Positions 2,048 through 52,703 of a DNA stretch of 64,000 bases are shown piece by piece; the first letter of the stretch is position 1; each line of letters opens with the position of its first letter. Under the pieces are notes generated by a model that searched no databases, was not told the DNA's origin, and saw nothing but the letters and a program-made list of their open reading frames with translations. The translations under genes and the position numbers were made by a program. The DNA is from Escherichia phage 1-6bf: the sequence record OR983334.1. One strand, 5' to 3'.

Positions 2048-2051
<4 letters not shown>

Positions 2052-3746: not shown

Positions 3747-3759
3747 TAAGGATATTATA

Positions 3760-4327: not shown

Positions 4328-4547
4328 TGATCAAAAATCTACGCAACAAGTGCTTCGCTTTCGCTATCGCAATTGGAGAGGCGAGGTTGCTGACCGGTCC
4401 GTTATTCCACTCCGAACCTCCGTTGCTAGCTCCCGTTTTCATAACGGTGGCAAACCTTGTTGGATTATGACAGCGATAGATGTAGAGAAAGATGAGATTC
4501 GAGAGTTCAAACTCTCTGACATTATTCAGTATTACGATTTAATCTAG
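4320..4547 (+). CDS. hypothetical protein
   Basis: ORF with AAAGGAAA RBS; no recognisable motif. Confidence 0.35.
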   Translation: MSDDQKSTQQVLRFRYRNWRGEVADRSVIPLRTSVASSRFHNGGKPCWIMTAIDVEKDEIREFKLSDIIQYYDLI

Positions 4548-4720: not shown

Positions 4721-4872
4721 GTTATATGAATGAAGAAGTTGTTATTCTTGGTAGTAAATCAGATTGGTTCTACGGAGGCATCTCAGGATGCTTTGAAGAT
4801 GAACATCCAGACTTCTGAAGAGAATTGGGATGTATGACGAATTTGATGGTTTTTAAAACTTAGAAACAAATA

Positions 4873-4906
4873 AAGCCCTCTTGGATTTCTCCTTGAGGGC
4901 TTTTCT
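4873..4906. terminator. bidirectional terminator between convergent gene blocks
   Basis: AAGCCCTC-loop-GAGGGCTT hairpin flanked by T/A runs, placed exactly where + and - strand clusters converge. Confidence 0.5.
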
Positions 4907-4910
4907 TTTA

Positions 4911-39828: not shown

Positions 39829-40049
39829 TATTCAGTAGCAATTTTGGTAAGTGTCCTATTTGTGAGAAACATCGCAGCACGGGAAACCATCGCAAATGTA
39901 GTAAGATATTACAGCGCCAACGTGATGACAATCATTGGGATACTGTACACGCTAATCAGCGTAAAGAAGAAGTTAGAAAAATGGCTGTTAAAGCGTCCTT
40001 TGCTCAATCCACCCGTATTGAACACATCCAAAGGTATCAAGCATTATGA
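39825..40049 (+). CDS. hypothetical Cys/His-containing small protein
   Basis: 74-aa ORF, CPICEKH ... HRKC pattern. Confidence 0.45.
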   Translation: MIFSSNFGKCPICEKHRSTGNHRKCSKILQRQRDDNHWDTVHANQRKEEVRKMAVKASFAQSTRIEHIQRYQAL

Positions 40050-40255
40050 TCACTAATATTTCAGAGTTTAAGAAAGCTCCCTCCCGACTGTTAGGTCGTC
40101 GTGTTGTATATCTTTACAGCAACAAAGGTAAATGCACAACCGGACGAATTACAACGGTGAGTAGTGCCAATAAGAAACTACTAAAGTTGTGTGTAACTAT
40201 GGATGACGGTACAATCCTTCTACGTAGTTGGAAATCGTTTAGTTTACTTGATTAA
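40046..40255 (+). CDS. hypothetical protein
   Basis: 69-aa ORF with ATGA overlap. Confidence 0.45.
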   Translation: MITNISEFKKAPSRLLGRRVVYLYSNKGKCTTGRITTVSSANKKLLKLCVTMDDGTILLRSWKSFSLLD

Positions 40256-40324
40256 GTTATTTGTTCAAGCCTATCGCCTTGATGGGCTTGCCCGATATAA
40301 CTTATCACTGAAAGGAATAAGATT

Positions 40325-40768
40325 GTGGCTAAATCTAAAATCAGCATGAAGGGCGGTCGTTGTTTTTCTATTTCTGAATTGGAGAAAGAGAAGCCAAAGG
40401 CAACCAATCACGTTAGTAAGCGTAGTTTAAAACGTCGTGCTGCAAAGGCTGAAGCTGAATCCCATGTTCCTTCTAGTGTGGCAAAACGTGTAGGCCATCG
40501 TGTCCATCGTGCTGATGCGTTGTTGTTAGCTGATCATAAACGTTCTTTGTTACAGAGCGGGGGCGCTAAAACAGAAGAAGAGAAGAAGTTAGAAATCTTC
40601 TGTAATGGTCGCACCCGTGGTAAGCAGAAGTTTAAAGGTAGCACGAAAGACCCGCAAGCATTCCCTAAGACAAGTCAGTGTGCGCCTGATGTTTTCTACG
40701 CAGATAGTAAACATAAATGGGGCGTTGAGAAATACATTGACCCCATCAAAGAGGCGAGGGTAAAATGA
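40325..40768 (+). CDS. basic protein, possible nucleic-acid binding
   Basis: 147 aa, Lys/Arg-rich, GTG start with AAAGGA RBS. Confidence 0.45.
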   Translation: MAKSKISMKGGRCFSISELEKEKPKATNHVSKRSLKRRAAKAEAESHVPSSVAKRVGHRVHRADALLLADHKRSLLQSGGAKTEEEKKLEIFCNGRTRGKQKFKGSTKDPQAFPKTSQCAPDVFYADSKHKWGVEKYIDPIKEARVK

Positions 40769-40941
40769 TTTATTCAGAGATTCTAAATAAAGTCAGAGAG
40801 ATGCGGCAAGGTGATGCAGTAGTTGATGTTCTGGTCCATCTGGTAGCATCCTTGCAAGAAGAAAACGAATTGGTTAAACAAGAAAACAAGGCATTAAGGA
40901 AGGCAATAAGTAACCTCTCCAATAGCCTCTCTTTTTAGTAC
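40765..40941 (+). CDS. small coiled-coil protein
   Basis: 58 codons, ATGA overlap with upstream gene. Confidence 0.3.
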
Positions 40942-40994
40942 TATGACGCTCTTTCTGTAGCGTCGTGCCCTCTCCCCATTTGAAGCTTCCGCAT

Positions 40995-41018
40995 AGCCGC
41001 CTTTGAGCGGCTTTTTGC
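40995..41018 (+). terminator. rho-independent terminator (first of tandem pair)
   Basis: AGCCGC-CTTTGA-GCGGCT + TTTTT. Confidence 0.5.
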
Positions 41019-41079
41019 GTTGCTGTAAGTGCATTTGCGAGTGTATTTATAGCAACGGTCATGTGTTGCTTTCAGGTTT

Positions 41080-41106
41080 GCCCCGGCTACGGCTGGGGCT
41101 TTTTTA
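41080..41106 (+). terminator. rho-independent terminator (second of tandem pair)
   Basis: GCCCCGGC-TACG-GCTGGGGC + TTTTTTAT. Confidence 0.6.
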
Positions 41107-41154
41107 TGCCCGTAAAACAGGAGGTAGCAAGTTCTGATAACAACGGCCCAGCTA

Positions 41155-41544
41155 ATGTTGACATTGACTATTTATTATGAGGCAGGGAATCAGCCAACCG
41201 CATGTAAGGCTTTAGTTGCGGATACCGTGATAAATAGAATGGCCCAACGAAAACTGACCGCTGAACAGGTGATAAGACAAAAGAACCAGTTTGAGTGGAT
41301 TCCGGTACTATTAAAACAGGAGAAACCTTATAAACGTTATGTAAAGCTGATTCGTGATAAAAATCCGATGACTAAACAAGCCATTGGAGAAAGCGAGCGG
41401 TTAGCTAAACGTGCCCTTAAGAAGAATTATGTTCCTCTGTATAGTGGGACTTACTTTCAGAGTAAGAGCGAAGGGGTGCCAAAATGGTATGCCAATCCTA
41501 TGTATTGTGGTGATTTAGTGTTCGATAATAGCTCTAGGGAATAA
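41155..41544 (+). CDS. SleB/CwlJ-like cell-wall hydrolase domain protein
   Basis: TIYYEAGNQPTACKALVADTVINRMA and C-terminal YFQSK ... CGDLVFDN resemble the Hydrolase_2 fold; no close RBS. Confidence 0.4.
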   Translation: MLTLTIYYEAGNQPTACKALVADTVINRMAQRKLTAEQVIRQKNQFEWIPVLLKQEKPYKRYVKLIRDKNPMTKQAIGESERLAKRALKKNYVPLYSGTYFQSKSEGVPKWYANPMYCGDLVFDNSSRE

Positions 41545-41743
41545 TCACTAGTGCCAGATTTGACAAACTAAATTCCTTTATAAACCAACCACTTAGTAAA
41601 TTTATTGAAAAAGATGGCAGTATTCTGGAACTATGGGTAATGCTCTGTATATAGACCCTTTGAAAATTTCTTAGAAAATAAGTTTACTAAATATAACTTA
41701 CTTAAATAATATTACTTTTAATCTCTGATAAAGGGTAAATAAT

Positions 41744-42040
41744 ATGACTTTAGAAGTATATAAATTCCTTTTTGTAAGCTGTTTAACTATCAGCGTTCTA
41801 GGATTTATTATTCTCAGAAACAAAGCAGCAAGCTGGGAGAGAATGTATAAATCCCTAGTTCGAGTGGATGAGATGTATAATGAGAAAGTTAAAGTAACAC
41901 TTAACGATCTTATTATGCAAGTAGAGGACAGAAACAAGCGTCTTCAGAACCTCAACAATGAAGTATTACGCCTTGCTCGTGCTAATGAAGACTTGCGAGT
42001 AGCTATTGCTAAGCAGCAGGAGATTAACAATGAAGCATGA
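41744..42040 (+). CDS. membrane protein with coiled-coil
   Basis: N-terminal TMD (FLFVSCLTISVLGFIIL) then heptad-like region. Confidence 0.5.
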   Translation: MTLEVYKFLFVSCLTISVLGFIILRNKAASWERMYKSLVRVDEMYNEKVKVTLNDLIMQVEDRNKRLQNLNNEVLRLARANEDLRVAIAKQQEINNEA

Positions 42041-42287
42041 TATTAATACAGCCCCTGTAGTCAAGCAGCTGAAAGATCTGAAGGTGGGAAGTGTTTTTGA
42101 AACTGTGCCACCTAAAAATAAATTATATCTTACAGTAAAGCTAGATTCCTCAACCGTTTATTCAGCTAGTTGGAAGTCTGATGAAAGGGTAGTAGTAGAT
42201 CTCACTTCGGATAGAATAACAATGTTGAGAAAAGATACTGTTGTTCAGGTAGTTGATAATGCTCGACTTACCAATAAGGTGGATTAA
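42030..42287 (+). CDS. small early protein, paralog family 1 (member A)
   Basis: shares MK ... L..G.VF ... Y ... TG pattern with 7 other ORFs; AGGAG RBS. Confidence 0.5.
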   Translation: MKHDINTAPVVKQLKDLKVGSVFETVPPKNKLYLTVKLDSSTVYSASWKSDERVVVDLTSDRITMLRKDTVVQVVDNARLTNKVD

Positions 42288-42289
42288 AG

Positions 42290-42526
42290 ATGAAAGTTAA
42301 TATTAAATCCGATCGTACAATGCTTCGCTTAAATAACATGAAGCCGGGGGTTCTGTTTGAGTCTAAAGGGTTCTTTTACATTAGAACTGACAGTCTATAC
42401 GCAGAAAATTATGTGAACTGTGTTGATGTGGTAACTGGAAAGCTCATTCCTATTAAACGAGATGAAGTCTGCCAAGTACGCAGTGATCTCCACATAACCA
42501 ATATAGAGGCTAAAGATGAAGATTAA
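42290..42526 (+). CDS. small early protein, paralog family 1 (member B)
   Basis: same family pattern (MKPGVLFESKGFFYIRTD). Confidence 0.5.
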   Translation: MKVNIKSDRTMLRLNNMKPGVLFESKGFFYIRTDSLYAENYVNCVDVVTGKLIPIKRDEVCQVRSDLHITNIEAKDED

Positions 42527-42773
42527 TCTTGAAGTAAAGGAACCGTCTTTGTGTGTTGGTGATCTCAAACTTGGAGATGTATTCCAAATCAGGGAAACAC
42601 GAACAGATTTCTACATGGTTGTTCAGCTATTTACCCCACAGATTGAAGAGACCAAGCCTTCTGATGGTGGTTGTGTCGTCCTCAGTCTGACAAATAAGCA
42701 AGTCCTTAAGCTTAGATCGAAAAGCAAGGTTGTTCTTCTTCATGATGTTATTATTACCAACAAGGGTAAGTAG
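42516..42773 (+). CDS. small early protein, paralog family 1 (member C)
   Basis: same family pattern (LKLGDVFQIRETRTDFYMVV). Confidence 0.5.
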   Translation: MKINLEVKEPSLCVGDLKLGDVFQIRETRTDFYMVVQLFTPQIEETKPSDGGCVVLSLTNKQVLKLRSKSKVVLLHDVIITNKGK

Positions 42774-42992
42774 ATGGAAATTAAAGTAGTTGAGACTCCT
42801 AAATATGCAAATGTGGAAGATCTTAAAGGGGGAGATGTTTTCTCTTATGATCAAAAATTCTGGCTGATGCTAGATGATGATCTCTCTAATGGACTACGCA
42901 GGGCTGCCAATCTAAGCACTGGTTATGTTGGTAATTTCAATCCATCAACCACTGTTATGCCTCGCCCTGATTTGTATTTGACTCAAAAGTAA
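42774..42992 (+). CDS. small early protein, paralog family 1 (member D)
   Basis: same family pattern (LKGGDVFSYDQKFWLML). Confidence 0.5.
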   Translation: MEIKVVETPKYANVEDLKGGDVFSYDQKFWLMLDDDLSNGLRRAANLSTGYVGNFNPSTTVMPRPDLYLTQK

Positions 42993-43003
42993 CACCGACT
43001 TAT

Positions 43004-43120
43004 AGCCCTTGTGTTTATCAGAGGGCTATGTGAGGGTGTTCCTCATTAACTTATTAATTCAGGCATATGCCACACCGCTAGGGAGAGCTTGCTCGAACAT
43101 CCGGTGCTAGACTAAAACCT
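43004..43120 (+). repeat. conserved intergenic element, copy 1 (hairpin + GCTAGGGAGAG ... CTCGAACATCCG)
   Basis: TATAGCCCTT-loop-AGGGCTATGTGAG hairpin then GCTAGGGAGAG-N-CTCGAACATCCG; second copy at 48962-49095. Confidence 0.4.
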
Positions 43121-43350
43121 GTTAATTTTCGAAAGACTTTCTGATATGTAGGGGTACGTATTAGTTTGGGATTCAGGAGACTTCCTAGGGGTAGGGAGTC
43201 TTCACCAGTTGGAATAAGAGATAGCTCTAGAACCTGAACTCTTAGGCAGAGAAGGTCGGCAATGAGTACGCGGTCAGGATTAGTCTACTGACTAGGGCTA
43301 TTCCTTATATCAACTGGCAATAATGCCTCCACTAACAAAGAGAGATAGGT

Positions 43351-43491
43351 ATGAAAGTATCAACCAAACGTATGAACCGCCCTGAACGTATGGATGCAGT
43401 AGCTAACGGTGCTCTGAAACTGGAAGGCTTTTGGATTCATGCAATGTCAGCCATTCGTAACAAGCAAGGTGGTTGGACGTATAACAGTTAA
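43351..43491 (+). CDS. small hypothetical protein
   Basis: 46-codon ORF followed immediately by a strong terminator. Confidence 0.3.
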   Translation: MKVSTKRMNRPERMDAVANGALKLEGFWIHAMSAIRNKQGGWTYNS

Positions 43492-43500
43492 TAAATAAAA

Positions 43501-43529
43501 GGCTGCCTTCGGGCGGCCTTTGTTGTTTT
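43501..43529 (+). terminator. rho-independent terminator
   Basis: GGCTGCC-TTCG-GGCGGCC + TTTGTTGTTTT. Confidence 0.6.
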
Positions 43530-43572
43530 AATTAAGGGACAACTCTTACTTAAACTAACAAGAGGTGCTTAT

Positions 43573-43917
43573 ATGAGACGCATGGTTAAAGATTGGGTCA
43601 CTAAATCAGGTCTTCGTGCTGTGATTATGCACATGAACGACTCCCATTTTTGTGGATATGTAGAGCTACCAGACAGCTTAAAACATAAAAACTTCACCGG
43701 ATATAACGGAAAGGAAAAGGTTTGTTATGTAAGTGTTCATGGTGGTGTCACATGGCAAGACACCCTTGAAGAGATGGGTGGTTTAAATACAATCGGATTT
43801 GATTGTGCCCATGCAGGTGATAAGACACGGTTCAACCCTAACGGGGTTCCAAGAACAGAAGCTTTCTGCATCAACGAATGCGAACAAATGGCTGAACAAC
43901 TGAGAGATCTTGAATAA
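43573..43917 (+). CDS. hypothetical protein
   Basis: 114 aa, AGAGG RBS. Confidence 0.5.
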   Translation: MRRMVKDWVTKSGLRAVIMHMNDSHFCGYVELPDSLKHKNFTGYNGKEKVCYVSVHGGVTWQDTLEEMGGLNTIGFDCAHAGDKTRFNPNGVPRTEAFCINECEQMAEQLRDLE

Positions 43918-43918
43918 A

Positions 43919-44095
43919 ATGTCTAAGCAAACAATAAAACATACGCAAGCTGGTTACTCTTATGTCAACTCCCCTTGCTGCGGTGCTCGTATTAATCTGG
44001 TTAAGGAAGAGGTTCGTATCGTTCAGCGTGGCGCTACTGTTGTTCGTTCATGCTGTGTCTGTGGTAATGATATTTTTATCAAAGGTAAAGTATGA
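43919..44095 (+). CDS. small zinc-ribbon protein
   Basis: CC-GARINL ... CCVCG four-Cys pattern. Confidence 0.4.
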   Translation: MSKQTIKHTQAGYSYVNSPCCGARINLVKEEVRIVQRGATVVRSCCVCGNDIFIKGKV

Positions 44096-44343
44096 AAAAC
44101 TTTCAAGCTGCACCAATCACTAAAGTGATCGAAGTTGACGGTGTGATGATGACTGTTCCTCTGAACACTCGTTACATTGCAATTGACAAGATGGGTTATG
44201 TATGGGCTTGGAAGATTAAGCCTAGCTATAACGCATTGTTTGATGAGTTTGTTTGCACTGGTACGTACAGTCCTACATTCTTGGGTTTGTTTAGTGAGTT
44301 TGATGGTCAGTATAAAATCATCACTCTCCCTGCTTGTGCTTGA
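44092..44343 (+). CDS. hypothetical protein
   Basis: 83-aa ORF with ATGA overlap. Confidence 0.45.
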   Translation: MKNFQAAPITKVIEVDGVMMTVPLNTRYIAIDKMGYVWAWKIKPSYNALFDEFVCTGTYSPTFLGLFSEFDGQYKIITLPACA

Positions 44344-44350
44344 GGTTAAT

Positions 44351-44512
44351 ATGTTCAAGTGGCTAAAGCGTGTCTTTCATTGTCATGATTGGAAGATTAT
44401 TAATACTCGCCCTCTGGTCTATACAGATTCAGATGGGAATAACGACAAGGGCACACGTTACGTTATTCAGTGTAAGGTGTGTGGTGATGTTAGTCATCGT
44501 GATGTAATCTAA
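44351..44512 (+). CDS. small His/Cys protein, paralog family 2 (member 1)
   Basis: MFKWLKRVFHCHDW ... CKVCG; two similar ORFs follow in tandem. Confidence 0.4.
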   Translation: MFKWLKRVFHCHDWKIINTRPLVYTDSDGNNDKGTRYVIQCKVCGDVSHRDVI

Positions 44513-44521
44513 GGAATCATT

Positions 44522-44686
44522 ATGATCAAATGGTTCAAACGCTTCTTTCATTTCCATGAGTGGGAAGATCTTCATACTTATGAACTGACGATCACAAATA
44601 AACTTACTGACAGAGAGCGACAAGGGTTGCGTATCTACTCTCGCTGTAAAGTGTGTGGTCTGCACAAGAAAACAGATCTGATCTAA
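44522..44686 (+). CDS. small His/Cys protein, paralog family 2 (member 2)
   Basis: MIKWFKRFFHFHEW ... CKVCG. Confidence 0.4.
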   Translation: MIKWFKRFFHFHEWEDLHTYELTITNKLTDRERQGLRIYSRCKVCGLHKKTDLI

Positions 44687-44694
44687 GGGGTGTT

Positions 44695-44904
44695 ATGTTC
44701 TTTCGTAAGAAAAAGCCCGAAGATTCTGGATGTAAACACGAGTGGGTGATCACTGAGAACCTACATATCACCCACGCTAAAGACACTCCGGTCGAGAGAA
44801 AAGAATCTCGTGTATCTCGTATCTGTAAACACTGTTTGAAAATAGAACAGCATAAAGTTCCCGGTCATATTGGTCACGATGTAGCCATTCGTATCTTTAG
44901 TTAA
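44695..44904 (+). CDS. small His/Cys protein, paralog family 2 (member 3)
   Basis: CKHEW ... ICKHC, same spacing of H/C residues. Confidence 0.4.
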   Translation: MFFRKKKPEDSGCKHEWVITENLHITHAKDTPVERKESRVSRICKHCLKIEQHKVPGHIGHDVAIRIFS

Positions 44905-44927
44905 ACAAATCTAGCACCCTTAGCTCA

Positions 44928-45368
44928 ATGGAGGTGGTATTGAAAATAGAGTTGGAATACCCCTTCATCAATGACTGGAGGTTGGGGTATTTAAGGACAA
45001 GTAAGGATGGGAGGAGGCGTGTTGACCTATTCAATTCTAACACAGATAGGACTACGATCTCTTATGCAAGGTATTTAATGTCTTGCCATGTAGGGAGGTA
45101 TCTTACTGCGGAGGAAGAGGTAGATCATGTTGATCAAAATCCAACCAATGATGAGATATCTAACCTTCAGATTCTAAGCACAAATGATCACCTAAAGAAG
45201 ACCTTAGAGAACAGACCTAAGGGTGTGGTCATTACTTTGATTTGTAGTAATTGTGGCACATCTTTTGAGAGAAGGGGTAACAAGGTCCACAAAGAAAACC
45301 AAAACCATTTTTGTAGTAGGTCTTGCAACGGTAAGTATTACTGGAGCAAGGGTTTCAATAATAAATAA
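44928..45368 (+). CDS. HNH homing endonuclease
   Basis: SYARYLM ... HVGRYLTAEEEVDHVDQNPTNDEISNLQIL plus C-terminal zinc finger; abuts tRNA-like element. Confidence 0.7.
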   Translation: MEVVLKIELEYPFINDWRLGYLRTSKDGRRRVDLFNSNTDRTTISYARYLMSCHVGRYLTAEEEVDHVDQNPTNDEISNLQILSTNDHLKKTLENRPKGVVITLICSNCGTSFERRGNKVHKENQNHFCSRSCNGKYYWSKGFNNK

Positions 45369-45379
45369 GAGCTTCTAGC

Positions 45380-45458
45380 GAGGATGTATCTTCCCCGCCT
45401 TCTAAGCGGTCGTTAAAGAAGTAATTGGAGTATGCAGGTTCGAACCCTGTCATCCTCG
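45380..45458 (+). tRNA. tRNA-like element (possible tRNA-Arg UCU; cloverleaf not fully resolved by hand)
   Basis: perfect 7-bp acceptor stem (GAGGATG/CATCCTC), T-arm GCAGG-TTCGAAC-CCTGT, hairpin with loop CTTCTAA; D-arm non-canonical in my fold; no encoded CCA. Confidence 0.35.
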
Positions 45459-45481
45459 CTAGAGGCTCTTGGAGGTGTGTT

Positions 45482-45763
45482 ATGTCATGGGGTGGTGTAA
45501 TATCCTTAATCTGTATCTTCCTTGTCTGCATAGCCCTTACAGGCTGCGTACAGAGCCGTCCTGATGGATGGTGTGCAGTAGCAGTGGAAGGTGTTTGTGT
45601 TTCTCGCTGGCACAAAGGTGAGAAGGTTCCTTCTGGTGAAATTGATATGCGTTACAGTGGTATCTCATGCCTGAACGGTGCAGCAGTAGATGAGGAAACT
45701 AAAACCTTGTCAGATGCACAGTGGTGTGGTGGTTCTGTAACAACAACCGGTAAGGAGTGGTAA
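45482..45763 (+). CDS. lipoprotein (superinfection-exclusion candidate)
   Basis: GGAGG RBS; signal peptide MSWGGVISLICIFLVCIALTGC with lipobox LTGC; Cys-rich mature part. Confidence 0.55.
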   Translation: MSWGGVISLICIFLVCIALTGCVQSRPDGWCAVAVEGVCVSRWHKGEKVPSGEIDMRYSGISCLNGAAVDEETKTLSDAQWCGGSVTTTGKEW

Positions 45764-45764
45764 T

Positions 45765-46013
45765 ATGACAGCTCATTATTGGAATACAAAGAAGCTTCTT
45801 GAAGAGATGGCTGGAGGTAGTAGGGTACAGCTAATCTCCATGCTTCGAATGGATGCTCGCTCCTTACGCTTCCAAGTAAAGATTGGTAACTTCAGTGATG
45901 GCCTTTATTACACGCTGAAGGAAAGGATCAAGAAGACTCACTTCATCATGTACGGAATCAAACCGAGAACGTACGTTAACTACATGTATTGGAATACATG
46001 CTACGATAATTGA
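45765..46013 (+). CDS. hypothetical protein
   Basis: AAGGAG RBS. Confidence 0.5.
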   Translation: MTAHYWNTKKLLEEMAGGSRVQLISMLRMDARSLRFQVKIGNFSDGLYYTLKERIKKTHFIMYGIKPRTYVNYMYWNTCYDN

Positions 46014-46020
46014 GGTTATT

Positions 46021-46242
46021 ATGAAACTAGACTCTAAGCAGTCACTTAAAACCGCTGAACTGTCCACGCTGCCAAACGGAAGTATCTTTGGTCATGATAA
46101 ACACTTCTGGATTAAAACAGACATCATAGACGATGGGTATATTACCTGTGTCAACCTTTGGAATGGTTCAGTGGATGGTTATCGCCCTAGCGCAAAGGTA
46201 GTCCCTCAGCCCGATGCAAAGGCTATAGGTTTAGTTTACTAA
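46021..46242 (+). CDS. small early protein, paralog family 1 (member E)
   Basis: LPNGSIFGHDKHFWIKTD family pattern. Confidence 0.5.
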   Translation: MKLDSKQSLKTAELSTLPNGSIFGHDKHFWIKTDIIDDGYITCVNLWNGSVDGYRPSAKVVPQPDAKAIGLVY

Positions 46243-46251
46243 GGAGCCTGT

Positions 46252-46425
46252 ATGAGTTGTTTTGGTGGCGGTGAAGTAGATGACGATGATGACATGGAAT
46301 CAAACGGCACATGTCCTGATTGTGGGTGTGAGACATGGGATGGGGTTTCTGTCTACCCTGCCTGTAGTTATTCACCAGTAATTTGTAAAACATGCGGTGA
46401 TCAGCCGTGTGACCAGTCTTGCTAA
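46252..46425 (+). CDS. small Cys-rich protein
   Basis: 57 codons, AAGGAG RBS, 9 Cys (CPDCGC ... CKTCGDQPCDQSC). Confidence 0.4.
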   Translation: MSCFGGGEVDDDDDMESNGTCPDCGCETWDGVSVYPACSYSPVICKTCGDQPCDQSC

Positions 46426-47040
46426 GAGAATATTATGACTGAAGAATTTTTAAAGTGGTTTGGTGATACCTTCAAAGAGTATCTATTCTCTCCAGAAGAC
46501 TTTGAAGAACTGAAAACCTACACTTGGTTGGCTTGGAGAGATAGCCGACGAGAGATGAATAAGTAATATCGTGAAGGATTCTTACGAGAGTCCTTTGAGA
46601 TAGGACTTCAGATCTCCTATCAAACTAACATTCATGTAACTAGCCCATAAGGGCGTTACCCTTTAATAACCCAGCCCACTAAGGGGGCGGGAGTTTAGTG
46701 CTGGATTAGCATAACGCTTATTCCTACAAAGGCAACCGATTGTTAGATCTTACATGCAATACTAATTAATAGGATAAGGGAGGATTCGTCCCCTCCCCCT
46801 ATTTATAAATTATCAGGAGAGTACTCTAGCTGATTAGCTGTAGAAGGGAGGCCGATATCTACGGCGTGGCCCAGAGCTAGTGTACTCTCCTGATGAGGCA
46901 CCTCCTCATCGTGGTAAGCTGTGGAATAATCTTTACAGCAGTTACTTGAAGTAGCCTGTACGGCCCTCAGCAAAGAGTCCGGACGATATCTGAGTGACTT
47001 TAAAAACAGATGGAGCCAGGTGGAATCCCTGGCAATTAGT

Positions 47041-47186
47041 TACAGGTATAGCTTATGAGGCTCACTAATGCAGAGCCTACGGTAAAGCAGTCGCCCGTGG
47101 TCAAATGACCGTATGCCCATTGGATGCATTCCTTTGGTGATGGCTAGGGAGTCCGAGCGTAGGTTCGAATCCTACACCTGTAACCA
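47041..47186 (+). tRNA. tRNA-like element with encoded CCA (146 nt between acceptor halves; intron, long insert or tRNA-like RNA)
   Basis: T-arm GTAGG-TTCGAAT-CCTAC, acceptor 3' ACCTGTA + A + CCA; only perfect 5' partner TACAGGT lies at 47041. Confidence 0.35.
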
Positions 47187-47214
47187 AATCGAATAATATC
47201 TAATTGGAGGATGT

Positions 47215-47526
47215 ATGAAAGCACGAAGAACTATATGGACTCCGATGCAGATTGAAAATCTTCGGAGACTAATCAAAGAGTACTCGGTTAAAGAAGTTGC
47301 TCAGATTATGAATGTAACGGAGAATGCAGTTAATACAGCTTGCACTAAATTCGGAATATCAAGAGCTTCAATCCGAGTTAAATGGTCTGAAGAAGAAGAC
47401 CAGTTCCTTATCCGTAATGCTGGGTTCATGTCTATTCAGAGAATGGCTGACATGCTCGGTAGAAGCTATGCTGCTGTACAGAACAGGGCATGTATGCACC
47501 TTAATATTAGCCTCAAACTTAAATAG
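47215..47526 (+). CDS. tandem helix-turn-helix DNA-binding protein
   Basis: GGAGG RBS; two similar units (W.P..IENLRRLI ... SVKEVAQIM and W.EEEDQFLI ... SIQRMADML). Confidence 0.5.
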   Translation: MKARRTIWTPMQIENLRRLIKEYSVKEVAQIMNVTENAVNTACTKFGISRASIRVKWSEEEDQFLIRNAGFMSIQRMADMLGRSYAAVQNRACMHLNISLKLK

Positions 47527-47534
47527 GAATCAAT

Positions 47535-47783
47535 ATGAAGATTACTCACAAGAAAGAAGAAGTGACCACGGTTGATATCAACTCCCTTCCCAGCGGAGCA
47601 GTATTTAAATTCCCTGAGAGTGCTACTCTCTATGTTAAAGGGTCTGTGTCTGAAAGTCCTAATGTAACCGTTAACTCTGATCGAGCAATTACCCTTCGTT
47701 TATCCGATGGTAACGTAACAGCACCTTCTATCTGGTGCCGAGTTGTTCCTGTGTCAGCAGAACTTTTGGTGGATAACACATAA
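47535..47783 (+). CDS. small early protein, paralog family 1 (member F)
   Basis: LPSGAVFKFPESATLYV family pattern. Confidence 0.5.
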   Translation: MKITHKKEEVTTVDINSLPSGAVFKFPESATLYVKGSVSESPNVTVNSDRAITLRLSDGNVTAPSIWCRVVPVSAELLVDNT

Positions 47784-48028
47784 TGAAGATCCTTCCCAAG
47801 ATTAAAGATAAAACTGTTTCACTGGATACAATTATTCCCGGAAACCCTTTCGTAATCCAACAAGGTTTAGCATCGCCTCAGTATTATATGCGAGTTACCA
47901 ATGTATCCAATAAGATCTCTGTCGAAGAAGGTTGGATTACTACAGTTAATCTTATGACTGGTGTTCTGGGTGTTATGAAAAGTGATACTCAGGTTGAAAT
48001 GATTCGTATGTCAGTGGTTCAGGAGTAA
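47783..48028 (+). CDS. small early protein, paralog family 1 (member G)
   Basis: IPGNPFVIQQG ... YYMRV family pattern. Confidence 0.5.
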   Translation: MKILPKIKDKTVSLDTIIPGNPFVIQQGLASPQYYMRVTNVSNKISVEEGWITTVNLMTGVLGVMKSDTQVEMIRMSVVQE

Positions 48029-48030
48029 TT

Positions 48031-48279
48031 ATGAGCACTATTCATATTAAAGTTAAGAGCAAAGAGGAAACAGTCCTCCGTGTTAAAGATCTAAACATGT
48101 CAGATGTGTTCACTCTCCAAGAGTGCCATCTTCAAAAGATTTACATGCTGACAGCTAAGAGCATAGGTTGTCAACCTGCTGGAGCTGTTAACTTAGGAAC
48201 TGGAGAAGTTCGTCCTGTGTCTGGAGATATGGTTGTTGGTGAGAAGTTTATTAAGGCTGAGATTATTTTAACTTCATAG
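48031..48279 (+). CDS. small early protein, paralog family 1 (member H)
   Basis: LNMSDVFTLQECHLQKIYML family pattern. Confidence 0.5.
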   Translation: MSTIHIKVKSKEETVLRVKDLNMSDVFTLQECHLQKIYMLTAKSIGCQPAGAVNLGTGEVRPVSGDMVVGEKFIKAEIILTS

Positions 48280-48286
48280 GTGATCT

Positions 48287-48499
48287 ATGACTCAAGAAGA
48301 GAAAGATATACTCATCCAGAATGCATACCTACTGTTCTCCTCTGAGGAAGTATTGTTCAACCAACTTTCTAAGTTGTGGAAAGTGTCTGAGGAAGAAGCT
48401 AAAGAGAAGTTTTATTCTGACATAACAGAAGATTACAAATCTTTTCTTGGTGAGGTGCTGAGAGATCGGCATGTGTATCTAAGTAACTACGCCTGTTAA
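48287..48499 (+). CDS. hypothetical protein
   Basis: 70-aa ORF. Confidence 0.45.
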   Translation: MTQEEKDILIQNAYLLFSSEEVLFNQLSKLWKVSEEEAKEKFYSDITEDYKSFLGEVLRDRHVYLSNYAC

Positions 48500-48733
48500 T
48501 AGGAAAACAAATGAGACGTAAAGCATATTCTTATGACGATATGATTAACCAGAAAGGCTTCGGTCAACGACAGCCTGATGGTTCAATTATCTGGTTCGTA
48601 AATGGACAGAAAAAGGTAGCTAAATAAGCCTTCTTCTCTCCTCCTTTTAGTACTATGACGCCTCTCTGTGGGCGGCCCAATTTGCGTAGGGAATTCCCTC
48701 TACGCAGCCATGACTTTTTAAGGAATTTCCCCT

Positions 48734-48967
48734 ATGTCTAAAGTAAGCGCAATTGATGCAATCCGTCAACCATTCCAGTTCCAATCTAAATCAACCCAAA
48801 CCTTCAGTGAGCCTAAGCAAATTCGCTTGGGCGGCACAGAGAAGACTGTGTTTGATCTGGCTAAAAACAAGAGCGTTACTGTAGTTGAAGGTGGCACTCT
48901 GGTTAACGTTTCACACCGCATCCGCACTGGCAAGACTGCCAAAGACCGTGCTAAGAAAGGCGAGTAA
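48734..48967 (+). CDS. hypothetical protein
   Basis: AAGGA RBS; 77 aa. Confidence 0.5.
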   Translation: MSKVSAIDAIRQPFQFQSKSTQTFSEPKQIRLGGTEKTVFDLAKNKSVTVVEGGTLVNVSHRIRTGKTAKDRAKKGE

Positions 48968-49095
48968 CACCTATAGCCTTCTTCGGAGGGCTATGTGAGT
49001 TATTCTGACTCAACTAACCTAATCTTAATATATTTCCCGTATGGGGCCGATGCTAGGGAGAGGAACATTCCTCGAACATCCGTCGGATAGATATT
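48962..49095 (+). repeat. conserved intergenic element, copy 2
   Basis: TATAGCCTT-loop-GAGGGCTATGTGAG hairpin then GCTAGGGAGAG-N-CTCGAACATCCG, matching 43004-43120. Confidence 0.4.
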
Positions 49096-49149
49096 TTAAG
49101 AGCAGGTTATCCACAGATATTGGGTAATATCTTTTTGTATTTAAAGCTT

Positions 49150-49176
49150 GACTCTTTTCGGAGAGTCCTTTTTTAA
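49150..49176 (+). terminator. rho-independent terminator
   Basis: GACTCT-TTTCGG-AGAGTC + CTTTTTTAAA. Confidence 0.5.
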
Positions 49177-49195
49177 ATTCAACGAGAGGAAATAT

Positions 49196-49348
49196 GTCTA
49201 AATTAGATTTAAAACTGCTAGCAGCAGCGGTAGTGATTTGTGCACTAGCACTGGTAACGCAGAGAACATCTGGATTTATTCAGTGTTTCTTTTCTGGGCA
49301 ATCCACTTATCAGTGGGTTATTGACGAGTGTAAACAACAGGAGTAAGT
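49196..49348 (+). CDS. small membrane protein
   Basis: 50 codons, GAGAGG RBS, one TMD (LLAAAVVICALALV). Confidence 0.35.
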
Positions 49349-49711
49349 ATGAATACACGTCCCATCAAGGGCAACGTTAATATTGAAACTCTGAACAAGG
49401 TTGCATCAAACCTCGGTGGAATGTCCAACGATGAGCTTGAGCAAGAACTTGCTTGGATTGCAAATGGTATCAAAGTTGCTAAAGGTAAGATTGCTCGTGA
49501 GCAAAGTAATATGAAAGCTCACAAGTATATCATCCGTCGTGCAAATATGTTACCGGAGCGGGTTGTACATCTTGCCCGTAAGAACTACGAAGGTGCTAAA
49601 GAAGCCCTGCTTGAAGCAGAGTTCCAGAAGCATCAATTTATGAACAACTATCGAAACTTCCGAGATATTCTCTATATCCGTAAATCGATTGAGTTGATTA
49701 AAAACCAATAG
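49349..49711 (+). CDS. hypothetical protein
   Basis: 120 aa, first gene of a tightly packed operon. Confidence 0.5.
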   Translation: MNTRPIKGNVNIETLNKVASNLGGMSNDELEQELAWIANGIKVAKGKIAREQSNMKAHKYIIRRANMLPERVVHLARKNYEGAKEALLEAEFQKHQFMNNYRNFRDILYIRKSIELIKNQ

Positions 49712-49722
49712 AGGTTGGTATA

Positions 49723-50922
49723 ATGTTTCCAGTAACATTAGAAGATACTGAAGGTAATGTTTTAACGGTCAACCCTCCTTGTTATGGGTTCCTTCAGCTA
49801 CGCAATTATAACGGGGGCGTTGAGGAAGAGGATGAAGAATATGATGAGTATTACGAACCTAACATGTATGAGGCAACTCATGGATGGAATATGCACGTTC
49901 GAGTGTGGCATGAAGAAGCTAACGTTCGTAGTGCTGATGGGGAAGAATTCCGATTAAGCAGAGAGATGGATATGTGTAAAATCAAGCATATCTGGAACTC
50001 TGGAACTCATATGAAAATGTTAGGTTTTAGACGTTGGCGCGATGAAAAGCATGTAGCTGAAGCTTTAAGTTGGTGTTCGTATGAAGATGAAGACACGCCC
50101 CCTAAGAATAACATTGAACGTTGGAACGACAAAAACCCTGAACATCGAACCACACCTCGTGCTGTACTGGAAGCTATGGAAGCATTTGTGGACAAAGATC
50201 GTCCCTCCTGTTTACGCTGGCACGATAAAGGTTTTATGGGGGTAGCAACTGAGAACATCCCTGCTGATCGTTGTCTGTTCTATTTGATGTTAGATCGAAC
50301 CTTCTATTGTGAAGATGAAGAGAGTCAAGTTGAAACCTTCCTTCATAAATGGTTGGTTGAAGGCTGGACAATCCTTCAGGCTTATGTTTACTCACGAATG
50401 GTTAGTACCTACACTAACCTCTTGGGGGAAACGAAAGCAACTCTGGTTGGTAATGATTGGGATGCTTGTATCTTCCCAGCGTCGCTGTTTACAGTCGGCA
50501 TGGCTGATAAATATGCTGAAGCATTTCAAGTGCCATGGCGTCAACAGTCGTACAGAGATGGCTGTGGTCACTTCCGTGATGAAGATTTTAAGTGGATTCA
50601 TTATGAGAATGATGAAACAGCAGAATTACGAGTTAATAACTCAATGTTCTTGCCAGTGATGCACCCCGATCTAGTAGAGAGTGAATCAGAAATCCTGAAA
50701 TGTGATAACCTTTTGGTTAACTTTGCTCGTCGTGTCTCTAAAGATGAAAGAACAGCAAATAAATTAGTATATGGCATTCGTGCTGAGACTAAAGACCTGT
50801 TCAACATCTATAACATTGTTCAGCGATTTAGTAGTGGAACTCTGGACCAAAGTTCGGAGTATTCAGTGATTCCATCCTCTGAGTGGGATGGTGTTATGAG
50901 CGGATTATTTTTAGGAAAATAA
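49723..50922 (+). CDS. hypothetical protein (operon with amidoligase genes)
   Basis: 399-aa ORF, no motif recognised. Confidence 0.5.
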   Translation: MFPVTLEDTEGNVLTVNPPCYGFLQLRNYNGGVEEEDEEYDEYYEPNMYEATHGWNMHVRVWHEEANVRSADGEEFRLSREMDMCKIKHIWNSGTHMKMLGFRRWRDEKHVAEALSWCSYEDEDTPPKNNIERWNDKNPEHRTTPRAVLEAMEAFVDKDRPSCLRWHDKGFMGVATENIPADRCLFYLMLDRTFYCEDEESQVETFLHKWLVEGWTILQAYVYSRMVSTYTNLLGETKATLVGNDWDACIFPASLFTVGMADKYAEAFQVPWRQQSYRDGCGHFRDEDFKWIHYENDETAELRVNNSMFLPVMHPDLVESESEILKCDNLLVNFARRVSKDERTANKLVYGIRAETKDLFNIYNIVQRFSSGTLDQSSEYSVIPSSEWDGVMSGLFLGK

Positions 50923-50932
50923 AAGGTTAGTT

Positions 50933-51904
50933 ATGTCAATCTCCACAACGATCGTACCTCTTAACCTTCAACAGGATTTAGGGGAACAGAAGTTCTTAGG
51001 TCGTGGGTGTTTCGGTATCCACAACTACATGCAAGGCCAGTGTGTAAATGACATTAATGGTGAAGTTATCACGGAAGAAGGGCGCTATCGTCGCTTCAAC
51101 CGTGATATCAACTTGCAACTGGAGATGTTGAATTACTGGACTCACTCTTTTCATGGTCATGTTACATCTGATATTGAAAAGAATTTGGTTGAAACAGCAG
51201 ACATTATGAACTCCATGTCTTGCTATCGTGACGTATTTACGATCACTTCAGCGAATAGTGTTGCTGTCAACCTTCGTGAGCATCCAGCAGATCAGATCTT
51301 CACAGGACTTATGCTCTTTCGTAGTATTCTGGAAGGGCAATATCGTGGAATGGATTTCCTAGCAGAAGGAATTGAAGACAGGGAAGAGTGGCTGAAGCGT
51401 AAACGCATCGGCATCGCTCTAGTGTTAGCTGGGTTGGGTCGTGACTTCTTCGGTGGATGGTCTCAACGAGGAAGAGCTAATGGGAGTAGCGAAAGCACCT
51501 CTATTGTTATTAACAACAATATGTCAGCAGCAGCATTCCTTCCTTTGGTTGTAGACTCTGATGAATACACGAAGCAAGTATGGGTTCAAAACCCCTTCGG
51601 TGTTGGCGACAACGAGAATGGTTATGTTCGTAACCATAACCAAGATGCCTTACGAAGATTTGCTCGTGCTAAAGATCAAGACCCGGACGAGTATGAAACA
51701 ATGTCAGAGTGGTTAAGACTCTGGTCCAACTGTTATGGTCACAAACGTGAATCAATAGACGACAAGTTGGGAAACATTACAGTACAAAACTTTACATCCC
51801 GACTGATTCAAAGAACTGGAGCAGATTCCGGTCTTACTCTTGAAGAAGTTGGTAACACAATCTCATCTCTCTTTTCTGAACTAGTGGAGTATTACAATGA
51901 CTAA
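50933..51904 (+). CDS. hypothetical protein (operon with amidoligase genes)
   Basis: 323-aa ORF. Confidence 0.5.
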   Translation: MSISTTIVPLNLQQDLGEQKFLGRGCFGIHNYMQGQCVNDINGEVITEEGRYRRFNRDINLQLEMLNYWTHSFHGHVTSDIEKNLVETADIMNSMSCYRDVFTITSANSVAVNLREHPADQIFTGLMLFRSILEGQYRGMDFLAEGIEDREEWLKRKRIGIALVLAGLGRDFFGGWSQRGRANGSSESTSIVINNNMSAAAFLPLVVDSDEYTKQVWVQNPFGVGDNENGYVRNHNQDALRRFARAKDQDPDEYETMSEWLRLWSNCYGHKRESIDDKLGNITVQNFTSRLIQRTGADSGLTLEEVGNTISSLFSELVEYYND

Positions 51905-52703
51905 GCGCAAATTCCTCATCGGCTCTGACCCTGAAATGTTCGTTCGTACTAGCAATGGTATCATCACTTCTGTAGCCGGTTTATTAGGCTGCTCTAAGGA
52001 CGATAAAATCGCTCTGGCTAAGGATGTTCGTCTCCAAGAGGACAATGTACTGGCTGAGTTTGATATTGACCCACAGAGCGGTTTTGAAGCGTTTAACGAT
52101 AACATGCAACGTGGTATTGATCTCACCAATAATGTCCTGAACAAACTGGACATGGAAACAGCTCCTGGTGTTAGCTCTCACATCTTCACTGAAGAAGAGA
52201 TGAAGACCTTTAATGAATCAGCGTTCATCTTCGGGTGCACTCCTGATTTCAACGCCTTCACTGGTCAGAAAAACCCATCCCCGACTTCTCAGAATAAGGG
52301 ACTTCGTACTGCCGGTGGTCACGTACATCTTGGCGTAGTTGGTGCTTTGGATATCACTCTGCAAACTCAGATGATGCTTGGTGTGCTGTGTGACTACTTC
52401 CTATCCCTCCCAGCAGTAATTATGGACAAAGATACTCGCCGTAAAGAACTCTACGGTAAAGCATCTGCAATCCGTTATAAAGACTATGGTATTGAATACC
52501 GTTCTCTGTCTAACTTCTGGATTAGTGATCGTGAAAACCGTAAGTTTGTTTACGATCAGGTTGACAAGGTTGTTCAGCAATGTGATATGTCCACTCTGAT
52601 GGCATTGCACTCTCGCCTTCCGATTGAGAAGCTTCATGAAATCATTAACGGGAACAATGTTAAAGAAGCTGACCAGCAGATCAAACTCCTTCAGGTAGCA
52701 TAA
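51897..52703 (+). CDS. possible divergent amidoligase-like protein
   Basis: FLIGSDPEMFV and GGHVHLG motifs loosely resemble carboxylate-amine ligase signatures; ATGA overlap. Confidence 0.3.
   Translation: MTKRKFLIGSDPEMFVRTSNGIITSVAGLLGCSKDDKIALAKDVRLQEDNVLAEFDIDPQSGFEAFNDNMQRGIDLTNNVLNKLDMETAPGVSSHIFTEEEMKTFNESAFIFGCTPDFNAFTGQKNPSPTSQNKGLRTAGGHVHLGVVGALDITLQTQMMLGVLCDYFLSLPAVIMDKDTRRKELYGKASAIRYKDYGIEYRSLSNFWISDRENRKFVYDQVDKVVQQCDMSTLMALHSRLPIEKLHEIINGNNVKEADQQIKLLQVA

Follow-up and report, generated by a model that had tools for sequence, protein, structure and literature searches.

Two copies of a structured RNA element behind early-gene stop codons in Escherichia phage 1-6bf

In Escherichia phage 1-6bf (sequence record OR983334.1), much the same non-coding sequence follows the stop codons of two different small early genes, within a stretch of 64,000 nucleotides (nt) that was analysed here and is called the window. 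The locus raises the question of whether this repeated element acts as DNA or as RNA, and what it does for the phage. The original prediction, made from the letters of the sequence alone, had described a composite element consisting of a hairpin followed by two short conserved boxes, and had offered an RNA processing site, a promoter for a phage-modified polymerase or a small structured RNA as its possible functions. We find that the composite element is a plus-strand RNA structure, and not a promoter, a terminator or a coding sequence.

Two copies per genome and their relatives

The phage belongs to the phiEco32-like coliphages (Kuravirus). The region shares 99.9% identity with Escherichia phage 1-6af and, over 65-80% of its length, 90-93% with the phiEco32-group Kuraviruses; small early genes occupy the + strand from about 37 kb on. 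Copy A of the element (43001-43111, + strand) is flanked by the homologues of phi32_113 and phi32_112, which stand 358 nt apart; copy B (48972-49094, + strand) is found in the 226 nt that separate the phi32_90 homologue from the final gene of the cluster before it. Three blocks are exact and colinear in the two copies: GAGGGCTATGTGAG (14 nt; 43021-43034 in A, 48986-48999 in B), GCTAGGGAGAG (11 nt; 43077-43087 and 49052-49062) and CTCGAACATCCG (12 nt; 43092-43103 and 49071-49082). Zero-mismatch matches to these blocks occur nowhere else in the 64 kb on either strand. With a TAA just 5' of each copy (42990-42992 and 48965-48967), the claim that one composite element stands behind two stop codons was borne out. 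The layout that had been described also held. The core boxes, for which a gap of 4 to 13 nt had been given, stand 4 nt (A) and 8 nt (B) apart; the 35-45 nt given for the distance from the hairpin did not hold, since GCTAGGG follows the hairpin at 42 nt in copy A and at 52 nt in copy B.

Small overlapping open reading frames (ORFs) are present at 43009-43110 in copy A and 48995-49090 in copy B, and some phage records annotate ORFs over both intergenic stretches. Because these ORFs read the shared blocks in different frames and the proteins flanking A and B have no relationship to one another, the element is conserved at the nucleotide level and the protein-coding explanation is out. The sequence GTAAC at the start of the element, stop codon included, is kept even when the upstream gene varies among phages. 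Because its start coincides with the stop codon of the gene before it, the element must be transcribed together with that gene.

A covariance model built from the element core was run over the window and the remaining 12 kb of the genome. Copy B scored 77.6 bits (49032-49092) and copy A 63.4 bits (43058-43113), the next best match in the window reached 10.5 bits, and the model found no further copies in the 12 kb outside the window, so that the genome has two in total. The original prediction had counted a third occurrence of the core, GCTAGGGAG, inside a tRNA-like element. This sequence actually lies at 47143-47151 and not at 47141-47149, and since there is no covariance-model match above 10.5 bits besides A and B, we regard it as a chance 9-mer rather than as a member of the family. 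The hexamer CTAGGG is under-represented in the window (12 observed, 20.7 expected); five of the 12 are on the + strand in non-coding early stretches, at 43078, 43185 and 43292 (all three in copy A), 47144 and 49053 (copy B).

Matches with 86-100% identity were found in 98 phage records for copy A and in 103 for copy B, all of them Kuravirus or Suseptimavirus (coliphages and Shigella phages). Copy B without copy A is also found in the Salmonella Moazamiviruses 7-11, SE131 and SeKF_80, with 73-75% identity; a second copy in 7-11 was not found in 58.7-89.9 kb. Because merely about 27-32% of the ORFs of 7-11 are homologous to those of phiEco32 (Lavysh et al.), the B stretch is unusually well kept in 7-11. 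Pattern scans that covered IMG/VR, metagenomes and GTDB genomes gave chiefly Kuravirus and 7-11-like contigs, a few chance matches and one informative outlier, L045, a 48.7-kb contig binned as a Flavobacterium metagenome-assembled genome, whose DNA is closest to the enterobacterial Citroviruses CVT22 and Pecta. It bears an A-like copy (62 bits), and the motif is absent from CVT22 and Pecta, its closest named relatives. Thus the fold spans three phage taxa, namely Gordonclarkvirinae, Grimontviridae and a Zobellviridae-like contig. The alignment of copies and the search for more of them, both of which had been proposed with the original prediction, thereby establish the copy number and the conservation of the element: two copies per genome, kept in relatives. 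Among the matches set aside, a weak one in CVT22 (E = 0.88) has a similar hairpin layout and is missing the conserved loops, and those in L006/L014, L047, L026 and L043 lie within or near coding sequence and were judged to be chance. In EcoN5, a tandem duplicated cassette (gp97-gp96-B element-gp95-gp94; L019 12643-15364) results in two identical B copies.

Structure of the shared domain

Reading 5' to 3' from the stop codon, the domain consists of a hairpin P0, a second hairpin Pa, an AU-rich linker, a mini-hairpin Pb, the 5' strand of helix P1, the 5' half of an internal loop, hairpin P2, the 3' half of the loop, the 3' strand of P1 and (N)UAGA. P0 has 9-10 bp and is without a U-tract, Pa is a short hairpin of the form GAGN...NCUC, Pb has 3 bp and an RUAU loop, and P1 and P2 have 5-7 bp and 3-5 bp respectively. 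The 7x7 internal loop, CUAGGG(A/C) / (G/A)AACAUC, is near-invariant.

All parts lie on the + strand. In copy A, the 10-bp P0 (UUAUAGCCCU / AGGGCUAUG, 43001-43030) stands 9 nt 3' of the TAA and lacks a U-tract; it is followed by Pa (GAGG-GUGUU-CCUC, 43032-43044), the linker (43045-43061), Pb (GGC-AUAU-GCC, 43062-43071) and the core (43072-43107), in which P1 is ACACCG/CGGUGC, the loop halves are CUAGGGA (43078-43084) and GAACAUC (43095-43101), and P2 is GAG-CUUG-CUC (43085-43094). In copy B, P0 (UAUAGCCUUC-UUCG-GAGGGCUAUG, 48972-48995) stands 5 nt 3' of the TAA, Pa is GAGUUA-UUC-UGACUC (48997-49011), Pb is CCC-GUAU-GGG (49036-49045), and the core (49047-49086) has P1 CCGAUG/CGUCGG, CUAGGGA at 49053-49059, GAACAUC at 49074-49080 and P2 GAGGA-ACAU-UCCUC at 49060-49073. 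The linker of copy B pairs past P1 through two helices, PL1 (UAACCU/AGGUUA) and PL2 (UCUUAA/UUAAGA), to give a three-way junction. Their 5' strands, as placed by RNAalifold, occupy 49015-49028 (UAACCU 49015-49020, UCUUAA 49023-49028), and their 3' strands (PL2 49096-49101, PL1 49104-49109) are provided by a double DnaA box that is described below. Copy A also allows a closing helix of this kind, in that AUUAAC (43045-43050) is able to pair with GUUAAU (43123-43128), and so does L045; the helix is weak in the phiEco32-type A copies. As read from the sequence, its counterparts are AAUUAAC/GUUAAUU in SU7 and UUUUAAUUAC/GUAAUAAAG in L045.

The evidence for this fold comes in part from 24 distinct copies, A and B together, that were aligned by hand to fit the structure. 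Standard pairs make up 99.7% of the 676 cells of this alignment; shifting the 3' partners by 1-3 columns lowers the figure to 33-48%. Of 29 pairs, nine have changed on both sides, and the covariation score of 0.358, compared to 0.132 in shuffles, was reached by none of the 500 shuffles. The original prediction had also called for a covariation check, and pairing is maintained through changes in five helices. Pairs 17-32, 18-31 and 19-30 of alignment A6, all in P0, vary with pairing maintained. The fourth pair of Pa is G-C in A, U-A in B and C-G in SU7-type B copies, Pa itself being GAGC...GCUC in SU7 and having a longer stem in 7-11 through a 7-nt insertion. The stem of Pb occurs as GGC/GCC, GCC/GGC and CCC/GGG, with the RUAU loop in all. 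P1 occurs in four unrelated sequences, CACCG/CGGUG, CCGAUG/CGUCGG, UCGGUG/CGCCGA and, in L045, AAUAGCG/CGCUAUU; its outermost pair is seen as C-G, U-A, A-U and G-U, and another of its pairs as A-U, C-G and G-C.

Since the hand alignment had been fitted to the structure, we also aligned 14 full-length B copies in the ordinary way with MAFFT and gave the result to RNAalifold. This run returned P0, Pa, PL1, PL2, Pb, P1 and P2 together with the terminator that follows copy B, and 10 pairs keep pairing after two-sided changes. PL2 covaries, being UCUUU/AAAGA in 7-11 and UUCUUUU/AAAAGAA in the sequence L028, and PL1 is invariant. The strongest independent test of the fold comes from L045. Its helices P0 (GUUAAGCG/CGCUUAAC), Pa (UAUACA/UGUAUA) and P1 have no sequence in common with those of Kuravirus. 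What it does retain is Pb (CCC-AUAU-GGG), GAG/CUC at the base of P2, and both halves of the internal loop, as CUAGGGC and AAACAUC. The fold also has a strand: 81 of the 676 paired cells (12%) are G·U, and because these would be A·C mismatches on the opposite strand, the fold belongs to the + strand, which is the mRNA sense. Structure and strand are established by these comparisons. The covariation in five helices, together with a distant homologue that has other helices and the same loops, supports the option of a small structured RNA; this part of the earlier interpretation stood, and its promoter and its third occurrence did not. An RNA processing site, its remaining option, would be compatible with what was observed.

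Two details of the domain deserve mention. The loop positions beside P2 co-vary (A..G, C..A or A..A), and these positions with the adjacent G·A might form tandem sheared purine pairs. The P0 loops of A and B are almost identical in SU7-type genomes. The hairpin core of P0, AGCCYUC...GAGGGCU, is also seen in a bidirectional terminator between convergent genes at window 4871-4910, in a post-stop hairpin of 7-11 (L003 3499-3522, TAAGCCTTCTTTCGAGAGGGCTTA) and in an intergenic stretch of CVT22 (L048 15258-15290, - strand). P0 may therefore be a generic type of post-gene hairpin joined to the specific domain. As an intrinsic terminator P0 was rejected: GUGAG and then Pa follow it with no U-tract, and the terminator scan lists hairpins at 43498 and 49150, neither of which is P0.

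The fold could not be assigned to a known family. With Rfam 15 at gathering level, the sole match in the window is a tRNA at 45380-45458 and there is none on A or B; at E <= 5 over 40000-52000, nothing overlaps A or B. ARAGORN reports no tRNA or tmRNA genes in the window. It thus misses the tRNA at 45380-45458, which is annotated as tRNA-Arg in relatives and scores 29.7 bits in Rfam against a gathering threshold of 29. Kink-turn, loop E/sarcin-ricin, T-loop, tetraloop-receptor and boxA were compared by eye with the conserved loop and its neighbours, and none of these motifs fits by its consensus. Searches of Rfam and of the Kuravirus and 7-11 literature gave no earlier description of the element; the phiEco32 literature was incompletely covered, and a mention as a processing site is possible there. 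A Kuravirus paper with RNA sequencing (PMC12803456) does not treat phage RNAs. Structured RNAs encoded in cis in phage early operons have precedents as a kind; what appears to be new is the architecture, the distribution over three phage taxa and the joining of a host-derived nrdD/DnaA segment to one of the copies.

The 3' parts of the two copies

The range given in the original prediction ended just 5' of a host-like double DnaA box, tTTAAGAGCAggTTATCCACAg (49095-49116, + strand), which is present in copy B only. It has the layout TTAAGAGCA-gg-TTATCCACA, with a weak box at 49096-49104 and a perfect box at 49107-49115, and by sequence copy B alone contains such a double box. Compared to the double box of E. 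coli nrdD, 21 of 22 positions agree and the 2-nt spacer is the same; the nrdD box, tTTAAGAACAggTTATCCACAg, was bound by DnaA in a 2024 study using chromatin immunoprecipitation sequencing (ChIP-seq; PMC11317965). The similarity includes flanking sequence. Window 49094-49135 has a chromosomal match in 5423 of 5426 complete E. coli genomes (36 of 42 identical by BLAST), the core of which is 33/35 by eye, the best ungapped 35-nt window being 31/35. Copy A, searched as a control in the same way, has no match to E. coli DNA at E <= 10. The host site is located between treC and nrdD (L050 1497-1542), and the shared core reads tTTAAGA(G/A)CAggTTATCCACAg. The sequence relationship of copy B to nrdD is thereby established.

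The sense strand of the phage corresponds to the strand antisense to nrdD, about 10-50 nt 5' of the nrdD ATG, and the complementary stretch, again restricted to copy B (49091-49133, + strand), reaches the flank of the nrdD Shine-Dalgarno sequence. In the nrdDG promoter there are FNR sites whose centres lie at -33.5 and -64.5 relative to the start of transcription (PMC10425943). Since the centres of these sites could be located on the E. coli sequence (L050), the nrdD start would lie about 178 nt 5' of the ATG, and the segment matched by copy B would therefore lie in the transcribed 5' untranslated region (UTR). Copy B thus appears to have extended complementarity, in the sense orientation, to a transcribed region of a target. 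RNAduplex gives -48.8 kcal/mol for copy B RNA with the E. coli nrdD leader (z = -9.9 against shuffles), and the 7-11 copy forms 19 contiguous pairs with the nrdD leader, that of Salmonella or E. coli alike. Four substitutions set the phage sequence apart from the host antisense sequence, and three of them, being A>G or C>U, retain pairing as G·U; such substitutions are suggestive of an antisense role, in a sample that is far too small to carry weight.

The 13-mer AGGTTATCCACAG, comprising the perfect box and its flanks, is invariant in all B copies including 7-11, which keeps the perfect box only and has lost the weak first box. Because an RNA against this segment of the leader must contain the sequence of the DnaA box, the readings of the segment as a DnaA site and as an antisense RNA are entangled. 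The invariance of UAACCU has no DnaA rationale and is therefore indirect support for the PL1 pairing. Beyond the double box, copy B has a variable hairpin, GAUAUU-GGGU-AAUAUC (49116-49131), that is missing from 7-11. Its 3' end (49132-49176, + strand) consists of a U-rich stretch, AUCUUUUUGUAUUUAAAGCUU, the hairpin GACUCUU-UUCG-GAGAGUC (49150-49167) and U6, and lies 18 nt 5' of the gene start at 49194. This terminator (T49150-49176), about 55 nt 3' of the B domain, is annotated as a terminator in 7-11, SU7 and 4E8. On sequence, these parts resemble the 3' module of Hfq-type small RNAs (sRNAs), a module that copy A does not have. An Hfq-binding module is reportedly the subject of a 2012 paper by Ishikawa, and the copy B terminator with its U-rich lead-in would, as far as the title of that paper goes, fit it.

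The sole other perfect DnaA box in the window (12099-12110, - strand) has the same extended 12-mer as copy B, GGTTATCCACAG, and lies inside a minus-strand gene block, co-oriented with its genes. In the nrdD promoter, near the weaker FNR site (L050 1706-1716), TTCAAACATCC on the nrdD sense strand has 10 nt (TCAAACATCC) of CTCAAACATCCG, which is the C..A variant of the conserved loop box. It lies 5' of the nrdD start in the orientation opposite to the DnaA-box match, and its resemblance to the loop box is probably due to chance.

The 3' part of copy A is a specific extension (43108-43350, + strand) of about 240 nt of conserved structured sequence, ending at the ATG (43351) of the phi32_112 homologue. 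Its conserved motifs are CCUGUUAAU, AAAGACU, AUAUGUAGGGGUA and CCUAGGGGUAGGGAG (with two GGGG-loop hairpins), and around 43232-43305 there is a long hairpin that varies in length, with a 58-nt indel compared to SU7. The motifs CCUGU(U)AAU, AAAGACU and AUAUGUAGGNGUA of the extension are found again in L045. A strong intrinsic terminator (43498-43530, + strand) follows the 46-amino-acid gene at 43351-43491, about 390 nt 3' of the A core. The scan gave no promoter-like match between this terminator and the next gene (43573), nor between T49150 and its next gene (49194). The genes 3' of copy B include a conserved amidoligase / COOH-NH2 ligase block, and the same block lies about 3 kb 3' of the L045 copy.

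Several other features of the surroundings were recorded. Between the two copies, window 46566-47215 comprises 650 nt without a long ORF. Conservation in Kuraviruses covers roughly the first 245 nt; the remainder is an insertion that is whole in only five phage records, with patches in N4-like phages (G7C group), Klebsiella phages and other phages. The 3' end of this stretch is tRNA-like, with TACAGGT at 47042, a T-arm GTAGGTTCGAATCCTAC and then ACCTGTAACCA up to 47188, and ARAGORN and Rfam return nothing there; a terminator-like hairpin lies at 46778-46797. A 58-nt direct repeat with 72% identity (44350-44407 and 44521-44578) is found at the starts of the ORFs 44370-44507 and 44522-44686. L045 encodes at least four small proteins with (D/E)EENE C-terminal ends (1978-4396), and has tandem TTGACT-16-TATATT promoters at 262 and 517, about 2.5 kb 5' of its copy of the RNA element.

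Possible functions and rival explanations

We tentatively favour, at somewhat under even chances, the explanation that two sister non-coding RNAs, cut or terminated out of early operons, have the shared domain as their structured body and carry their own 3' effectors. Host RNA polymerase makes the domain, of about 110 nt and several helices, within early polycistronic operons and directly behind a stop codon. P0 and Pa are followed by a three-way junction of the closing helix, Pb and the arm P1-[7x7 loop]-P2, and the near-invariant internal loop could serve as a recognition surface for a protein or for processing or stabilising machinery. The effector of copy B would be the roughly 40 nt antisense to the nrdD leader, followed by the U-rich stretch and the terminator in the layout of a 3'-UTR-derived Hfq-type sRNA, and that of copy A the 240-nt structured extension with its GGGG loops. 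Cleavage in the AU-rich linker might leave P0 and Pa on the upstream mRNA as a protective 3' cap. In favour of this explanation, a stop codon marks the start of the element in each of the three lineages, and there is no conserved promoter.

Comparison with 3'-UTR-derived Hfq-dependent sRNAs such as CpxQ, SroC and NarS, and with phage antisense RNAs, points both ways. Copy B resembles them in lying in the 3' UTR of an early gene, in its U-rich stretch, hairpin and U6, and in being complementary to a host mRNA leader beside the Shine-Dalgarno sequence, just 5' of the terminator module. It differs from them in that its complementarity of about 40 nt goes far beyond a seed and is mostly buried, and in its large conserved 5' domain; copy A differs in having no terminator module and no detectable target.

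A number of points weigh against the explanation by sister RNAs, in which the release of discrete RNAs, a partner for the loop and the roles of the RNAs are inferred. Copy A is without a terminator of its own, the next one being about 390 nt 3' and past the conserved 46-amino-acid gene. The paired percentage of the hand alignment is inflated by its having been fitted to the structure. The nrdD-complementary stretch is mostly sequestered in PL1 and PL2 (unpaired probability 0.02-0.03), its exposed parts being only UCCACA (0.75) and the GGGU loop (0.85). The invariance of AGGTTATCCACAG would be explained equally well by a DnaA box acting on DNA. Finally, when nrdD leaders of Salmonella, Citrobacter and E. 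albertii were compared, a comparison in which whole-segment RNAduplex energies are uninformative, the 7-11 copy was found to fit the Salmonella leader at 22/35 and the E. coli leader at 21/35, with equal duplex energies. Host tracking is not supported, since the 7-11 copy pairs with the leader of Salmonella no better than with that of E. coli; the coliphage B copy does match the E. coli-specific flanks (31 vs 27).

A narrower account, centred on copy B, appears possible and rather unlikely. Copy B would be a phage regulatory RNA directed against nrdD, and so against the anaerobic ribonucleotide reductase of the host; it would derive from the 3' UTR of an early gene and finish in an Hfq-type terminator, with about 40 nt of pairing that runs over the DnaA double box up to the Shine-Dalgarno sequence, and the domain would be a new scaffold or protein-binding module that is reused in copy A. 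If copy B does target nrdD, the phage would control the host supply of deoxynucleoside triphosphates (dNTPs) in the anaerobic gut. The DNA of copy B might additionally be a DnaA decoy.

The main rival is processive antitermination in cis, in which the domain would bind the RNA polymerase that made it, as put RNAs do in phage HK022, and cause it to read through the intrinsic terminators that follow. We consider it doubtful, though a serious competitor. Both copies lie in operons of the host RNA polymerase and 5' of terminators (T49150 at about 55 nt, T43498 at about 390 nt), and because no promoter-like match follows either terminator, the conserved amidoligase block needs read-through. Having two copies in separate transcription units is also reminiscent of putL and putR. 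The put sites consist of two adjacent stem-loops, of about 70 nt, near a promoter, and their RNA raises terminator read-through in cis with no need for protein factors. Like the element, putL and putR are two sister short folded RNAs with covarying stems and conserved unpaired bases, located in early operons of the host polymerase, 5' of terminators and with no dedicated promoter. Unlike them, the element has five helices and a three-way junction, is operon-distal behind a stop codon and has no sequence similarity to put. The B copy of 7-11 is directly 5' of an annotated terminator, and the only two validated early sigma-70 promoters of the leftward cluster of 7-11 are both 5' of gene 151 (PMC8948821), from which it follows that 7-11 needs long-range read-through. 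Against these points, the strong terminators at 39521, 40995 and 41080 lie 5' of copy A with no element before them, the copies are at the ends of operons and not beside promoters, and L045 has no convincing terminator after its copy; the terminators themselves may be leaky.

Another possibility, a rather poor one in our judgement, is that copy B acts as DNA, the double DnaA box, of high affinity, recruiting host DnaA as a roadblock or gate before the terminator and the amidoligase operon, as a DnaA sink, or as part of a replication origin that the structured early transcript activates or primes, with the RNA domain as an accessory. In its favour, tTTAAGAGCAggTTATCCACAg is one base off the nrdD double box that DnaA binds in ChIP-seq (PMC11317965), AGGTTATCCACAG is invariant from Kuravirus to 7-11, and an AT-rich stretch lies 3' of the box. 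The nrdD double box, of the datA and oriC R4 type, is matched at 21/22, with identity into the nrdD-specific flanks; the box of copy B differs from it in being in a lytic phage, between an RNA domain and a terminator, and in the opposite orientation relative to transcription. Because copy A and L045 have no DnaA box at all, DnaA cannot account for the shared element, and 7-11 lacks the weak box. The GC skew tracks gene direction with no feature at 43 or 49 kb, and thus gives no replication-origin signal there. The identity to E. coli also continues past the boxes (GA[T/A]ATTGGG), beyond what DnaA recognition needs.

A riboswitch-like attenuator that responds to a ligand or factor is improbable. 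The three-way junction would be the sensor and T49150 the expression platform, with AAGAG of the PL2 3' strand pairing alternatively with CUCUU in the 5' arm of the terminator. Aptamers typically have covarying helices around invariant nucleotides in junctions and loops, the terminator is directly 5' of a conserved operon, and the AAGAG-CUCUU pairing can be read from the sequence. However, the next gene is inconsistent, being the phi32_112 homologue for A, the phi32_90 homologue for B, the endolysin in 7-11 and an unrelated ORF in L045; the only adjacent terminator is that of B, A and L045 having none; and the alternative pairing is of 4-5 bp and is lost in 7-11. A riboswitch class was rejected on the differing 3' genes and the single adjacent terminator, and no Rfam match was seen at the E value used above.

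We hold out little hope, too, for a strict RNA processing signal, either a new self-cleaving ribozyme or the site of a dedicated endonuclease, comparable to the RNase III sites of T7. An intercistronic position right behind stop codons, the presence of several copies with no consistent gene association, and invariant loop nucleotides inside covarying helices would all suit such a signal. RNase III substrates have about two helical turns (~20 bp) of mostly double-stranded RNA. With P1 of 5-7 bp and P2 of 3-5 bp around a 7x7 loop, P1 and P2 amount to only 9-11 bp and fall short of this length, and no known ribozyme family was matched. The early sites R0.3 to R1.3 of T7 are likewise repeated intercistronic hairpins with an internal loop in early polycistronic RNA, where the upstream mRNA keeps a 3' hairpin; the element differs from them in its loop-flanking helices of 9-11 bp, its near-invariant 7x7 loop and its two copies per genome. 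In another intergenic region of 7-11, primer extension gave an end at a hairpin, which was attributed to processing or to stalling of reverse transcriptase (PMC8948821).

That the element is a boundary module for recombination, a patch of homology of the promoter-early stem-loop (PeSL) kind used in cassette swapping, seems very unlikely. The gene 5' of B differs between the window and phiEco32 with the same GTAAC start, the duplicated cassette of EcoN5 includes B, and the P0 loops of A and B are near-identical in SU7-type genomes, all of which would be in keeping with such a module. Five helices with compensatory and wobble changes, and a homologue whose helices are unrelated, argue instead for selection on RNA folding and not on DNA identity. 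The PeSL of T4-type phages are similarly a stem-loop plus conserved 3' sequence, repeated among variable small early genes, and the element is unlike them in having no conserved sigma-70 promoter and in that its conservation is one of RNA pairing.

A promoter, whether for host RNA polymerase or for a polymerase with the gp36 sigma factor, can be dismissed almost entirely: the 9/12 sigma-70-like match CTGACT-18-TATATT in copy B (49005-49034) is the only one and is lost in copy A and in 7-11 (through the 7-nt insertion), the gp36 consensus has no match with up to 2 mismatches in A and a single 2-mismatch match in B, and the pattern of variation is that of base-paired RNA. The gp36 promoter consists of a single element, tAATGTAtA, 6-8 bp 5' of the transcript start, and gp36 promoters have been mapped elsewhere, 5' of genes 6, 13, 26, 40, 58 and 68 (PMC8948821). 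The option of a promoter for a phage-modified polymerase thus found no support.

The early regions of phiEco32-like phages are annotated nearly entirely as hypothetical small proteins, in a group that is widely isolated for coliphage therapy. A fold that is absent from Rfam gives these regions a defined element through which early transcription or the fate of early RNA may be controlled, in a group with unexplained early terminators and long operons. The antisense near-copy of the nrdD/DnaA segment connects a lytic phage to host DnaA or to anaerobic dNTP synthesis, and either connection would be a new kind of host takeover.

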